Shown piece after piece: positions 18,548-28,408 of a DNA stretch of 64,000 nt. A program made the position numbers and the translations under genes. Every line of letters starts with the position of its first letter. Position 1 is the stretch's first letter. Source of the stretch: Candidatus Altimarinota bacterium (GTDB taxonomy: Bacteria; Patescibacteriota; Gracilibacteria; CAIRYL01; GCA-016699755). The notes under the pieces are model-generated. The model did not search any database. It was not told where the DNA came from and was given only the letters and a program-made list of their open reading frames with translations. Location: assembly GCA_963664295.1 (NCBI GenBank), contig OY760935.1, positions 64,001 through 128,000 of the forward strand, in the 5' to 3' direction.

Positions 18548-20578
18548 ATGAATAAAAAAGATTTACCACCTGTGAGAAGTCCAGAAGAGGCCAAACAATT
18601 AGCAGGAAATTATCCTGAAAAAGCCCATCATTTGGCCTATTCACTAAAAACACTTAGAGAAAGTCAGCAGCATATTAAGCCATACACTGCTGATGTTTGC
18701 GGAAAAACATTTCTTGTTATGCCGAATGTTTTTGCTCCTACTTATTTTATGGATACACCATTTTTTGCTGAAAATTTACCCATTCAAGAAGGAGAGTCTT
18801 TTTTGGAAATAGGCTCAGGAACAGGAGTTGTTTCAATCATGGCTGCTTTAAAAGGCGCTGGAGAGGTCTATGCATTAGATATAAATCCGTCCGCAGTAGA
18901 AAATACTAGACGAAATATTTTTAGATTTGGATTAGACAATAAAATGATGGCTTTGCAGAGCGATGTTTATGATTCATTACCACCAGGTAAAAAATTTGAT
19001 ACTATTTTTTGGAATGTGCCATTTGGTGTTGTTGATGAAGAATTATCTGATCTTGAAAAAGCAGTATTTGATCAGGGCTATGAATCAGTTAGAAGGTTTA
19101 TTGTCGAAGCTAAAGATAGACTAAAAGAAGGAGGAAGGTTGCTTTTGGGCTTTTCTACAGATGAAGGCAGGTTTGAACTAATAGAAAAGTTTGCCAAAGA
19201 AGGAGGATTAGAAATTAAGCTTTTAGAAGAAAAAGCAATTATTAACAGGGGACATGCAATTAAGTTTGAAATTTTTGAAATGAAACCTAAGACTGGAAAT
19301 AAAAGAGATATAGAAGTATCTGATAAAAAAGAAGTAGATGAAAAAAATTCAGCTCAAGATATTAAATTTGAAGTTCCTTTTAATTGGGAGCCAGATTTTT
19401 TAGATTTTTTAGAAACCCATAAAGACAAAGTACATTCTGTTTACGGATCTTTACCCGGTGAAGCGACTGGTAGACCAATACCTCATTCATCTTCGGTTAA
19501 TAAAAGCGCAATAACAACTAAGTATTTTGCAGAAGTTGTTGATAGATTAAAAAAATTAGGAATAGACTTTAACTTAGTAATGAATGCAACATGTAATGCA
19601 AATACTCATCATACCAATGAAGGTAAAAAAAGAATTAAAGAAAAAGTGGAAAGAATTAGTGATATAGGAATAAACACTGTCACTGTTGCTAATTTTGACC
19701 TAGCAAGGAGGATTAGTGATATAAATTCAGAAATTAGAATTATGTTGTCTATTATTTTTAATATTACACAATTAGACCAAATAAGATATGCTCGCAGGCA
19801 AGATTTTAATTTGCAAGGCGTGTTAGTTGGTAAAGGTTTGAATAGAAATTTGCCATTATTAAAAAGGTTTTTAGATAGAACAAAAGATCTTGATGCAATT
19901 GCAATTGCTAATGATTTTTGTCCTTCTGCAAATTGTCCAGAGCGCATAACAGATCATAACAACTCATGTGCTCATAAAAATATGCCCATGAGTCCTGAGT
20001 ATGGCGAACAATATTATGTATCTCCTAGTACTAATTGTAGAGCTATGACTTTGCAAGATCCTGCTTATTTTTTAAGAGCTCCTGTTATAAATCCTAATGA
20101 TTTAGCTGTTTATGCTGATGCAGGTGTTAAAACATTAAAACTAACAGACAGAATTATGCCTTCAAAAAAATTGATGGAGATTTGTGATGCATATTTTGGG
20201 GGTGAATATGACGGCAATCTTTTTGATCTTTTTAGTTATACTGGACATTTTGACAACACACATTTGCCACAAAGACGATTAAGCAAAGAGGAGGTCAGGA
20301 AAATTGTTCAAGGTGGTTATCAAAATTTAGCTAGTCATAGAAATTTATTTCGTTTAAATCCTTTTCTTAGCGCGCGTGCTCTTTCTGAAAGTGGCTTTAT
20401 GAAACCTTTTGAAAAAGGGGCTTGTGATCATGATTGTTATCATGAAGAAGTAGCGCCTAGTGGTTGTCAACATTGCGATAATTATGCAGATAGATTTCTT
20501 GAAATTGATGAAGAATTAAAAGACATTGTGTTGCACAACATTAAAACCTTGCAAGCAGTTTCAAAACAAGAGATTTAG
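18548..20578 (+). CDS. Fusion of class I SAM methyltransferase (HemK/PrmC-like) and U32-family Fe-S protein
   Basis: N-half LEIGSGTG, DINPSAV, SDVY, FDTIFWNVPF; C-half FNW..VYGS..GR, NATC, NDFC...C..H...CAH, C, INPNDL..Y...G...LKLTDR, CxxxC...CxxC. Confidence 0.8.
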   Translation: MNKKDLPPVRSPEEAKQLAGNYPEKAHHLAYSLKTLRESQQHIKPYTADVCGKTFLVMPNVFAPTYFMDTPFFAENLPIQEGESFLEIGSGTGVVSIMAALKGAGEVYALDINPSAVENTRRNIFRFGLDNKMMALQSDVYDSLPPGKKFDTIFWNVPFGVVDEELSDLEKAVFDQGYESVRRFIVEAKDRLKEGGRLLLGFSTDEGRFELIEKFAKEGGLEIKLLEEKAIINRGHAIKFEIFEMKPKTGNKRDIEVSDKKEVDEKNSAQDIKFEVPFNWEPDFLDFLETHKDKVHSVYGSLPGEATGRPIPHSSSVNKSAITTKYFAEVVDRLKKLGIDFNLVMNATCNANTHHTNEGKKRIKEKVERISDIGINTVTVANFDLARRISDINSEIRIMLSIIFNITQLDQIRYARRQDFNLQGVLVGKGLNRNLPLLKRFLDRTKDLDAIAIANDFCPSANCPERITDHNNSCAHKNMPMSPEYGEQYYVSPSTNCRAMTLQDPAYFLRAPVINPNDLAVYADAGVKTLKLTDRIMPSKKLMEICDAYFGGEYDGNLFDLFSYTGHFDNTHLPQRRLSKEEVRKIVQGGYQNLASHRNLFRLNPFLSARALSESGFMKPFEKGACDHDCYHEEVAPSGCQHCDNYADRFLEIDEELKDIVLHNIKTLQAVSKQEI

Positions 20579-25085: not shown

Positions 25086-25694
25086 ATGTCCCCTGATAAT
25101 TTTTCTTGTTGTGAATTTAAACGCCAAGTTCAATTTGATTTAGAAAATGGCACACAAATCAAACAAAGTACACCAGAGCTAAATGATGCTTACGGTATAG
25201 CCATTGAAATATATCAATTGGCACAAGAAACAAAAGAAAATGTGCATGAAAAAATTCGTTATTTTTCAATTAAAATTGGTCATGTCGATCATAATGGTAT
25301 TCGCAGTTGTTTGGTTTCTGTTTTGCAAGAAGCTTTAAGTGGAAGTGAAAATTGCGAAAGTGTAAACAATAAAATACCGGAAGTTATCACTTGTATCACA
25401 CCTGGCAATGCTGTTGTTAACATTTTTGGCGAAACTGGAGTTAGAAGGTCGGTTTTGGTGACAGATGATTTTATTAAAGAACAAGAAATAATGGGCAGAT
25501 ATCGTTATTTACATGAATCAAGACGAATACTAGAGAAAGAACTCGGTGCTCCTTTGAAAAAATTTATAAATAATAAATGGCTTCGTAAAGCTTTTTATGC
25601 TGTTTTGTGTAGCTTACAACTAAAACATAAAGATTCTATCAAAGAAACCGCTTTTTATTTACGAGAAGCAGGAGAGTGGAATATTGTTGCTTAA
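25086..25694 (+). CDS. Hypothetical protein
   Basis: 202-aa ORF filling the intergenic space; no motif recognised. Confidence 0.6.
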   Translation: MSPDNFSCCEFKRQVQFDLENGTQIKQSTPELNDAYGIAIEIYQLAQETKENVHEKIRYFSIKIGHVDHNGIRSCLVSVLQEALSGSENCESVNNKIPEVITCITPGNAVVNIFGETGVRRSVLVTDDFIKEQEIMGRYRYLHESRRILEKELGAPLKKFINNKWLRKAFYAVLCSLQLKHKDSIKETAFYLREAGEWNIVA

Positions 25695-25737
25695 ATTATT
25701 TGACTTTAAAAAATAATTCTGTTAAAAATAAATCAGC

Positions 25738-25797
25738 ATGAAATTAATTATTAAAACTTTGGCTCGTCGTCGAACTCTCAAAATTCTTTGGGGGTAA
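25738..25797 (+). CDS. Arg-rich leader peptide MKLIIKTLARRRTLKILWG
   Basis: 19 codons with CGT-CGT-CGA at 25765-25773, directly upstream of argG and overlapping attenuator stems. Confidence 0.75.
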   Translation: MKLIIKTLARRRTLKILWG

Positions 25798-25857
25798 TAA
25801 TTTCATGTAATTAAAATTGTTGTTTACTCCTAAAGAGTTTTCCTTGGGAGTTTTTTT
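25774..25857 (+). promoter_or_regulatory. Transcription attenuator (1:2 protector, 2:3 antiterminator, 3:4 terminator)
   Basis: 1:2 = 25774-82/25787-95; 2:3 = 25781-97/25824-40 (17 bp, 3 G-U); 3:4 = 25826-33/25844-51 plus T6. Confidence 0.78.
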
Positions 25858-25970: not shown

Positions 25971-27221
25971 ATGGAACAAAATACGAATTACAAAAAAATT
26001 GCTTCTCATGAAGCAAAAAAAGGCGAATTTAAAAAATGTCTTTTGCTTTATTCGGGAGGATTGGATACATCTGTGATGTTGAAATGGATACAAGAGCAAT
26101 ACGAATGCGAGCTTTATGCTCTTACTATTGATATTGGTCAATTGCACGAAGATTTGGAAGAAATCAAAGAAAAAGCTATAAAATTAGGAGCAAAAAAAGC
26201 TTTTGTTATTGACGCAAAAGAGCAATTTGCAGATGAAATTTTGTCAAAAGCAATAAAAGCAAATGCAGACTATGAAGGTGGTTATCCGCTTTCCACTCCT
26301 CTGGGCAGAGTTATTCTTTCGCAAATTGCTGTAGAAATTGCTCAAAAAGAAGGAATTGAGGTTATTGCTCATGGCTCAACTGGCAAAGGTAATGATCAAG
26401 TCAGATTTGAAAATTACATCACAACTCTTGATCCAAATTTAAAAATAATCGCGCCAGTACGTGAATGGGGAATTGGCAGAGATGAAGAAATTGAATATGC
26501 AAAAAAGCACAATATTCCAATCAAACAAACCGCAGAAACGCCATATTCTTATGATGATAATATGTGGGGTTCTACTGGCGAAGGTGGCGAAATTGAAGAT
26601 CCAAAACTAATTCCACCTTTGGAAAATATTTTGCAAGTTTGCACCTTACCAGAAAATGCACCAAATGAAAGTGAAATTATAGAAATTGAATTTCAAAAAG
26701 GCGTGCCAGTAGCTTTTGGTGGACAAAAAATGTCATTAAAAAATATTGTTAATCAGGTAAATAAGGCTGGTGCAAAGCATGGCGTTGGCATTACTCATTT
26801 AATCGAAGACAGGCTAATCGGCATGAAAGTTAGGGGAGTGTATGAAGCACCTGGTGCTGAAATTCTCATTAAAGCTCATTATAATTTGGAAAAAATTGTA
26901 AACACCAAAGATGCCAATATGCTCAAAAAAGAATTAGATGTGAAATGGTCTGATTTTTGTTATTCTGCAAAATGGTTTGAGCCAGCCCTGCAGGCAATTC
27001 ATGCTTTTCAGGACAAAATTAACGAAAGAGTTGATGGCAAAGTAAAGGTAAAATTATATAAAGGAGTAGCAACTGTGGTTGCCGTTGAATCTCCTTATTC
27101 ATTGTTCAATGCGGATTTGGCAACTTTTAATAAAAATTCTGCTTTTAATCAAAATGCTTCAGCCGGATTTATTGAGCTTTATAATCTTGCTCAAAAAACA
27201 TATTATAATGCAGGAAAATGA
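25971..27221 (+). CDS. argG: Argininosuccinate synthase
   Basis: LLYSGGLDTSV, HGSTGKGNDQVRFE, YSYDDNMWG, RGVYEAPG. Confidence 0.97.
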   Translation: MEQNTNYKKIASHEAKKGEFKKCLLLYSGGLDTSVMLKWIQEQYECELYALTIDIGQLHEDLEEIKEKAIKLGAKKAFVIDAKEQFADEILSKAIKANADYEGGYPLSTPLGRVILSQIAVEIAQKEGIEVIAHGSTGKGNDQVRFENYITTLDPNLKIIAPVREWGIGRDEEIEYAKKHNIPIKQTAETPYSYDDNMWGSTGEGGEIEDPKLIPPLENILQVCTLPENAPNESEIIEIEFQKGVPVAFGGQKMSLKNIVNQVNKAGAKHGVGITHLIEDRLIGMKVRGVYEAPGAEILIKAHYNLEKIVNTKDANMLKKELDVKWSDFCYSAKWFEPALQAIHAFQDKINERVDGKVKVKLYKGVATVVAVESPYSLFNADLATFNKNSAFNQNASAGFIELYNLAQKTYYNAGK

Positions 27222-28408
27222 ATAAACTTTGGCACATTGGTGGCGAAAAGAGTGATGATTTTGTAGACACTTTTACTGTTGGTGATGATTATTTGCTCGA
27301 TCAGGTTTTACTTTCTTATGACGTGCAAGCTTCTAAGGTACATGCAAAAATGCTTTTAAAAATGGGTACAATTAACAAAAAAGAGCATGAAGATTTACAA
27401 AAAGGTTTAGATGAAATTTTAGCTCTGCATAAGAAAGGGGAGTTTAAAATACTTCCCGAACAGGAAGATTGTCACACTGCAATTGAGCAATATTTAACAG
27501 AAAAGTGCCCAGAAGCAGGTAAAAAAATTCACACATTCAGAAGTAGAAATGACCAGGTATTAACTGCATTAAGGCTATATATGAAACATGAATTTGCCCA
27601 AATTCAAAAATTAGTGATGAATTTAATTAAGTCATTACAAAAAAAGGCAAAAAAATCTGAAAAAATTCCTATGCCTGGCTATACACATTATCAAAAAGCA
27701 ATGCCAACTGATTGTGGTACATGGTTTTTGAGTTTTGCCGATGCACTAGAGGATAATTTAAGTTTTTTGCAATCTTTGAAAAAAACAATAAACCAAAATC
27801 CGCTTGGTAGTGGAGCGGGTTTTGGTTTTCAAAATTTTAAAATTGATCGTGAGTTAACCGCCAAGGAAATGGGTTTTGCAAAAGTACAAAAAAATCCTCT
27901 TTATTGCGGTTTTTCCAGAGGATATTTTGAGTATTTGTTTTTGAATAATTTGGCACAAATTGTGATTGTTTTTTCTCGTTTTGCCAGTGATTTATTGCTT
28001 TTTTCCACGCAGGAGTTTGATTTTGTAAAATTGCCGAATAGTTTTGTGACAGGATCTTCAATCATGCCACAAAAGAAAAACCCAGATACAATTGAGATTT
28101 TACAAGGAAAAATAAGTTCTTTTTTGGCAAAAAAACAAGAAATAGAAGGAATTATTTTAAAATTATCCAGCGGATATCACAGGGAATATCAATTAATTAA
28201 AAAACCTTTTTTTGAAGGCATAAAAATAATCAAAGATTGTATTCAAATTGTGCAAATTGCTGTTGAAGAACTTGAATTTAAAGAAAATAATTTACAACAA
28301 GCAATGTCTGATGATCTTTTTGCAACAGAAAAAGTTTATGAATTAGTTAAAAAAGGCATGAGTTTTCGTGATGCTTATAAAAAAGTAAAAAAAGAATTAG
28401 GTTTTTAA
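27218..28408 (+). CDS. argH: Argininosuccinate lyase
   Basis: EDCHTAIE, RSRNDQV, MPGYTHYQKA, GSSIMPQKKNPD, FRDAY; ATGA overlap with argG. Confidence 0.96.
   Translation: MNKLWHIGGEKSDDFVDTFTVGDDYLLDQVLLSYDVQASKVHAKMLLKMGTINKKEHEDLQKGLDEILALHKKGEFKILPEQEDCHTAIEQYLTEKCPEAGKKIHTFRSRNDQVLTALRLYMKHEFAQIQKLVMNLIKSLQKKAKKSEKIPMPGYTHYQKAMPTDCGTWFLSFADALEDNLSFLQSLKKTINQNPLGSGAGFGFQNFKIDRELTAKEMGFAKVQKNPLYCGFSRGYFEYLFLNNLAQIVIVFSRFASDLLLFSTQEFDFVKLPNSFVTGSSIMPQKKNPDTIEILQGKISSFLAKKQEIEGIILKLSSGYHREYQLIKKPFFEGIKIIKDCIQIVQIAVEELEFKENNLQQAMSDDLFATEKVYELVKKGMSFRDAYKKVKKELGF

Follow-up and report, generated by a model that had tools for sequence, protein, structure and literature searches.

Genes and leader elements at the argG-argH locus

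The window, by which we mean the whole 64,000-nucleotide stretch of DNA that was analysed, belongs to a genome (G000) that consists of a single 1.215-Mb contig of 33.5% GC, is scored 100% complete and uses genetic code 11; the class to which it belongs includes TGA-recoded genomes. On its forward strand the window carries argG, encoding an argininosuccinate synthase of 416 aa (25971-27221; TIGR00032, 454.6 bits against a cut-off of 268.2), and argH, encoding an argininosuccinate lyase of 396 aa (27218-28408; TIGR00838, 324.7 bits against a cut-off of 279.5), which overlaps the argG stop. The nearest named argG proteins are 68-75% identical and bear the labels Peregrinibacteria, Peribacteria, Gracilibacteria or Patescibacteria; a CPR bacterium of the Gracilibacteria class is therefore the likely host. 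Upstream of argG, on the same strand, lies a leader uORF of 19 codons, MKLIIKTLARRRTLKILWG (25738-25797), with uORFs at the homologous position in relatives, and its codons 10-12, CGT CGT CGA (25765-25773), specify three successive arginines that we refer to as control codons. A -35-like hexamer, TTGACT (25700-25705), stands 38 nt 5' of the leader start codon and is followed by a weak -10-like match (25724-25729), the promoter matching 9 of 12 consensus positions; transcription probably starts at ~25735-37, which would make the uORF near-leaderless. Three alternative helices and a tract of six U residues (25852-25857) follow. These elements had been picked out in a first-pass annotation made from the letters alone, and its coordinates for TTGACT, the uORF and the arginine codons, as well as its helices and T6 tract, were reproduced here. 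It had also pointed to the use of CGN codons where AGA appeared to dominate. AGA is indeed the commonest arginine codon genome-wide (44%), but CGT (20%) and CGC (16%) are not rare, so that the choice of CGT-CGT-CGA by itself, at one locus, is not striking.

Several features of the locus could also fit a non-regulatory arrangement, in which the hairpin before argG terminates transcription of an upstream gene and the uORF is a chance occurrence or a relic. A same-strand ORF of 202 aa, with no NCBIfam or Pfam match (25086-25694), lies directly 5' of the leader promoter and stops 5 nt before TTGACT, and a promoter scan of the window returned 2 sites where 4.5 were expected by chance, so that the TTGACT match alone is not above chance. 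Against this, the same scan found no further promoter-like site between the terminator and argG, the leader of the window holds a complete set of switching helices, and, as described below, the arrangement recurs in relatives behind genes that point the other way.

No Rfam leader family matched the locus at the gathering or relevant sub-gathering score, the best being VrrA at 25.4 bits against 50. A T-box riboswitch was rejected as a candidate, as the argG locus had no match to RF00230 (Stem I specifier loop, T-box bulge). Elsewhere in the window, a 676-aa ORF (18548-20578, forward strand) has an N-terminal HemK-like methyltransferase domain, with ~440 C-terminal residues left uncovered by the best matches shown.

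Mutually exclusive helices and a modelled switch

Helix 1:2, a putative protector or pause hairpin, pairs segment 1 (25774-25782) with positions 25787-25795 in 9 bp, 3 of them G-U (-7.7 kcal/mol). The latter arm lies inside segment 2 (25781-25797), whose 3' end is the uORF stop codon and which pairs with segment 3 (25824-25840) through 17 contiguous bp, again with 3 G-U, to give the predicted antiterminator 2:3 (-18.7 kcal/mol including 4 more pairs). The predicted intrinsic terminator 3:4 uses positions 25826-25833 of segment 3 as its 5' arm, paired with segment 4 (25844-25851) in 8 bp plus 2 (-9.6 kcal/mol) just before the U6 tract. Since helix 2:3 shares nucleotides with both 1:2 and 3:4, it is mutually exclusive with both. 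The leader fold beats 200/200 dinucleotide shuffles (z -4.66). The terminator is modest, and with its 10-nt loop it was missed by a simple terminator scan with a loop limit of 3-8.

We modelled the effect of a translating ribosome by removing the bases that it covers and folding the remaining RNA at equilibrium. With the footprint set to +13 and the A site on Arg10, 11 or 12, P(terminator) was 0.00 and P(antiterminator) 1.00, while P(terminator) reached 0.92 at codon 14 and stayed at ~1.0 from there to the stop; over footprints of +9 to +15 the flip remained within codons 13-15, always past the arginine run. The first-pass annotation had proposed that a ribosome stalled at the arginine codons allows the antiterminator and that translation to the stop allows termination, and the constrained fold bears this out within the model, the terminator being absent with the ribosome on the arginine codons and formed once it has passed codons 13-15. 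As modelled, the spacing in the window is such that a stall at the control codons would free segment 2 and onward movement would block it.

Without a ribosome the outcome differs: at equilibrium the untranslated window RNA favours the antiterminator (P 0.83-0.87, against 0.13-0.17 for the terminator), so that default termination would need kinetic trapping by helix 1:2. Folding of successively longer prefixes formed 1:2 first, with P 0.94 or more until 25835, when segment 3 is nearly complete, and the path barrier out of 1:2 is estimated at 18 kcal/mol.

The leader recurs across the class

Among 401 genomes of the class, argG was present in 86, and 80 usable operon-head leaders were obtained; those unused came from G278 and G273, where contigs were short or cut, from L012, L259 and L262, where the flank was short, and from L268, which had no start. 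An ATG or GTG uORF with Arg-Arg-Arg at codons 6-21 was found in 31/80 of these leaders, a number that, like all counts and permutations given here, overstates independence because the genomes are kin. In 50 rounds of dinucleotide shuffling the same test gave a mean of 0.8 and a maximum of 3, which excludes chance for the leader; the reverse strand gave 1/80, and of 129 upstream regions taken as controls within these loci 2.3% were positive. For a run of only two arginines the corresponding values were 56/80 leaders, 11.7 in shuffles and 15.5% of control regions. When the triple-residue test was applied to other amino acids, serine (7/80) and leucine (6/80) came next highest.

The full architecture, that is a uORF with at least Arg-Arg and a terminator 30-70 nt 3' of the arginine run, was present at 43/80 operon heads and in 3/129 controls, and it is spread over 14 of the 20 families of the class. 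Of the three positive controls, one duplicates an argG leader, and the other two are leaders that lie one or two genes 5' of argG on the same strand. Absence of the uORF or the arginine run from homologous loci would have counted against the first-pass reading; instead, the arginine run, its frame, its spacing and the helices all recur. The upstream gene is on the opposite strand in 19 of the 43 loci, so that the terminator there is not that gene's. The reading of the window hairpin as an upstream gene's terminator behind an accidental or relic uORF is highly improbable.

The leader keeps to the operon head whether the first gene is argG, argF or an unannotated gene (L236 has argG-argS), and at 6 loci it goes with a distant argG protein of 29-38% identity. 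The full architecture is missing at 37/80 heads, including 11/11 of family f18 and 3/3 of f8. The f18 loci L225, L228, L230, L231, L240, L241 and L244 have a divergent argG of 35-37% identity, as do L246, L249, L250 and L261 of the same family. Outside this set, argG loci of other Patescibacteria and of varied labels (L042-L110) showed no enrichment, with Arg-Arg-Arg uORFs in 2/65 and the full architecture in 5/65. In these loci and in L161-L220, argG often adjoins pyrD, pyrF, pyrE and an amidohydrolase gene.

Some leaders are repeated. Two complete attenuators stand in tandem in L253, L278, L037 and L038; a second Arg uORF was observed in L221, L233, L235, L243, L291, L155 and L156, and in several tandem leaders the second start codon falls ~10-15 nt past the first U-tract.

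A number of neighbouring genes drew our attention in passing. In Peribacteria-type loci, the argF/argG operon that follows the Arg leader begins with a member of a 375-aa family without Pfam or NCBIfam match (L280:4778-5902 and its 12-member cluster), a candidate arginine or citrulline enzyme. Proteins of 140-155 aa without a Pfam match are encoded just 5' of argG or argF at L279:2799-3260, L288:3129-3548 and L283:3762-4193, the one in L279 directly beneath an Arg leader. Finally, L008, L009 and L012 share a conserved ORF of 11-12 codons (MITFRFYYQKR-like) between argF and argG, ~90 nt 5' of argG, in one family.

The arginine run in frame and the spacing of the promoter

Several observations suggest that the run is read as codons. 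Out of 39 Arg-Arg-Arg triplets located in any frame, 32 had an in-frame start 4-20 codons 5' with no intervening stop, as against 7/78 in the other-frame control. The first arginine is codon 10 or 11 in 19/24 cases with a unique start; because our picking of starts favoured codon 10, positional evidence was taken from these cases only. The codons of the run are mostly CGC or CGT (120/151), and three TGA-recoded genomes (L256, L258, L260) have AGA/AGG runs instead, a switch from CGN to AGR that keeps the run and so indicates conservation of arginine, not of an RNA motif. By inspection, the peptides vary outside the run both in sequence and in length (~12-27 aa), and the control codons thus appear to have been kept in frame while the remaining peptide drifted. 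The tRNA-Arg anticodons of G000 are GCG, TCG, TCT and CCT, with ACG absent; CGY-rich control codons would be decoded mainly by tRNA-Arg(GCG).

The same data bear on whether the nascent peptide itself could be the sensor, stalling in response to a ligand in the manner of the fungal arginine attenuator peptide, SpeFL, TnaC or an Arg-X-Arg macrolide-type motif. The run is tightly fixed relative to the start (codon 10-11), as arrest motifs are, and Arg-Arg-Arg is compatible with the Arg-Leu-Arg-like motif of antibiotic leaders in the available part of one survey (PMC8632094). Yet a promoter-fixed leaderless start would explain the fixed distance too, the peptides drift everywhere but in the run, the downstream genes are specifically arginine genes, and the geometry predicts that a stall turns biosynthesis on, which suits starvation. 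We regard an arrest peptide as very unlikely.

The spacing of the promoter supports translation from close to the RNA's 5' end. In the set of 53 leaders described below, TTGAC lies 34-40 nt 5' of the leader start in 28, whereas only 12 of 685 other ATG or GTG triplets in the same regions are so placed; from this spacing in relatives, near-leaderless initiation is predicted.

Antiterminator pairing in relatives

The helices were examined in 53 leaders that have an arginine run and a suitably spaced terminator, assembled out of the class loci plus 11 of a set of 160 loci, with identical leaders entered once. As the stems diverge, MAFFT alignments of the leaders misregister the terminators, and alignment-free swap and shuffle tests were used, with terminators picked without reference to segment 2. 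Segment 2 pairs with the 5' arm of its own terminator at a mean of -10.1 kcal/mol, as compared to -5.6 with the arms of other loci; the own arm beats the row median in 51/53 leaders, a result reached in 0/10000 permutations of the swap test among these kin genomes. Control pairings gave -5.7 (composition-matched shuffles), -6.2 (reversed) and -5.8 kcal/mol (3' arm). By this test the arms of the antiterminator appear to co-vary across leaders. Overlapping 1:2, 2:3 and 3:4 sets occur in 41/53 leaders, with 33 distinct cores, some of them nested. The swap signal is weaker for 1:2, where the own partner beats the median in 31/53. Of the two signs that the first-pass annotation had proposed to look for, conserved arginine runs were found and the arms co-vary in the swap test, whereas covariation counted on an alignment was not significant: with 6 leaders only, it yielded 1 compensatory pair, a count that 79/500 shuffles reach.

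Only 27/53 leaders switch in the fixed-footprint equilibrium model, and some leaders have no called terminator. Both points would suit post-transcriptional control, in which refolding driven by a stall at the Arg codons alters argG initiation or mRNA decay and the hairpin with its U-tract is secondary. Precedents come from the portions available of reports on speF orf34 (PMC6386406) and rbfL (PMC13009471), both of which sense arginine through uORF codons. What speaks against it is the placement of the structures: the hairpins of the window stop 113 nt 5' of the argG start and leave it uncovered, a hairpin with a U-tract follows the arginine run by 30-70 nt in 43/80 leaders, and the 5' arm of that hairpin co-varies with segment 2. 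Moreover, Rho was not found in G000. Taken together, these data make a post-transcriptional mode unlikely. Rho-dependent control of the speF orf34 type was likewise rejected, Rho not having been found in G000 and an intrinsic terminator being present.

Proposed mechanism

The element has, as judged from its sequence, the features of a classical attenuator: tandem codons for the end product, mutually exclusive helices and a predicted terminator before the first structural gene. We consider it very likely that the argG-argH leader is a ribosome-coupled transcription attenuator of the classical type that senses charged tRNA-Arg. The promoter at TTGACT would start the RNA just 5' of the AUG, where a ribosome would initiate and remain coupled to RNA polymerase. 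When Arg-tRNA is low, this ribosome would stall with Arg10-12 in the A site and cover segment 1, segment 2 would then be free to pair with segment 3, and, with no terminator formed, polymerase would read through into argG-argH. With ample arginine, the ribosome would pass codons 13-15 and cover segment 2, so that 3:4 could form and transcription would end near 25857. That arginine codons can serve in such a leader is indicated by the accessible part of a study of the Salmonella his leader, where introduced Arg codons de-attenuate it when slow (PMC4046918).

Host context and other amino-acid leaders

Such an attenuator would replace ArgR. A search of G000, whose single contig is scored 100% complete, for both ArgR domains found no ArgR, and across the class just 1/401 genomes gave a match above the cut-off; an ArgR/AhrC regulon was rejected on these grounds. 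The only carbamoyltransferase in G000 is pyrB, carA is present, and neither argF nor an arginine deiminase-family gene was found in this genome. On this gene set the substrate of argGH would be citrulline, which G000 may possibly import.

Two other leaders of G000 are of interest in their own right. A pair of short ORFs, each with its own hairpin and U-tract 3' of it, lies upstream of hisG-hisI (G000:C1:413847-413560, reverse strand; L300). The first, MKLVKTNKARHQF, begins 38 nt past TTGACA and has an N-terminus that resembles that of the arg leader; the second reads MSFWQFLNLWHHRNLGESREWFFDH. This region is a candidate tandem His attenuator. A hisG match was present in 61 genomes, and no His leader was conserved directly before the gene in the best 30 loci, so the his leader of G000 is unsupported by conservation. 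Directly before thrS (G000:C1:498636-498822, forward strand; L332:337-523) lies a T-box-like leader whose specifier position holds an ACC triplet; it scores 56.7 bits (cut-off 93; E 4e-11) and is the only T-box-like match in the genome.

Relation to known leaders

Classical leader-peptide transcription attenuators are exemplified by trpL, leuL, thrL and pheL of E. coli and Salmonella, and for arg genes ArgR/AhrC repression and T-box control are known. The hisL mechanism is, in the part of the paper available, of the same leader-peptide type (PMC4046918). With these systems the present leader shares a short uORF with tandem end-product codons, the 1:2/2:3/3:4 arrangement, an intrinsic terminator and predicted read-through upon stalling. 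It differs in its control residue, arginine, in its targets (argG-argH here, argF and argS in relatives), in its CPR-type host, in its near-leaderless start, in the tandem attenuators of some relatives and in matching no Rfam leader family. A similar layout is that of ilvL/ilvBNC of Corynebacterium, for which the accessible portion of the report describes a start codon 1 nt from the transcription start, a 15-codon peptide and a three-hairpin attenuator, although that leader senses branched-chain amino acids and belongs to Actinobacteria (PMC11857589).

Other leaders sense arginine or touch the same pathway by different means. According to the part of the speF orf34/speFL report available (PMC6386406), the Salmonella leader likewise combines consecutive Arg uORF codons, ribosome pausing and alternative RNA folding, which renders downstream expression arginine-dependent, but its target is ornithine decarboxylase, it works by Rho-dependent termination, RBS occlusion and RNase G, its peptide has a conserved core, and that portion reports no intrinsic terminator. 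The S. aureus rbfL uORF also senses arginine limitation through Arg codons, in this case rare AGA/AGG; a ribosome that pauses there obstructs the RBS of rbf and so turns translation off, and the target is a biofilm regulator (PMC13009471, in the part available). In E. coli, a small ORF at argF, named argL, influences argF expression and concerns the same target pathway; it overlaps the argF start, and the available part of the source describes no attenuation (10.1101/511675).

The first-pass annotation had known of no characterised classical Arg-codon attenuator, nor of one in CPR bacteria, and this agrees with the full-text literature that we searched, which yielded none for arginine synthesis and none for Patescibacteria, though an earlier prediction may exist. 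None is described in the portions found of the surveys searched: in PMC2965389 the word arginine is absent from the text, and two argG terminators appear in the supplement, where they are not annotated as attenuators; PMC4833913 gave no match in text or supplements; the available parts of the PMC8632094 survey and its supplement held none; and arginine is absent from the accessible main text of PMC11109978. A comparative survey from 2010 (PMID 20198868) could contain an arg prediction. What is new here is likely the arginine specificity and the CPR-type host of a classical attenuator design already known.

Implications

Arginine synthesis is a textbook case of repressor control, not attenuation. 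The conserved Arg-codon attenuator suggests that this lineage, where no ArgR was found, likely relies on a classical ribosome sensor. For uncultured CPR bacteria, a regulatory mechanism as concrete as this is rare. The element is ~160 nt long, and dozens of natural variants provide compensatory mutants. More broadly, and on balance probably, arginine attenuation has taken the place of ArgR throughout this class of CPR bacteria, Gracilibacteria-type and inclusive of TGA-recoded members, through near-leaderless and sometimes tandem leaders that stand at the operon head whatever the lead gene or argG clade. If so, arginine synthesis would join the repertoire of classical attenuators, and CPR cells would possess amino-acid sensing together with tight coupling of transcription to translation. 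The implication would be that these cells make and ration arginine from citrulline and initiate translation on near-leaderless RNAs, with transcription and translation coupled.
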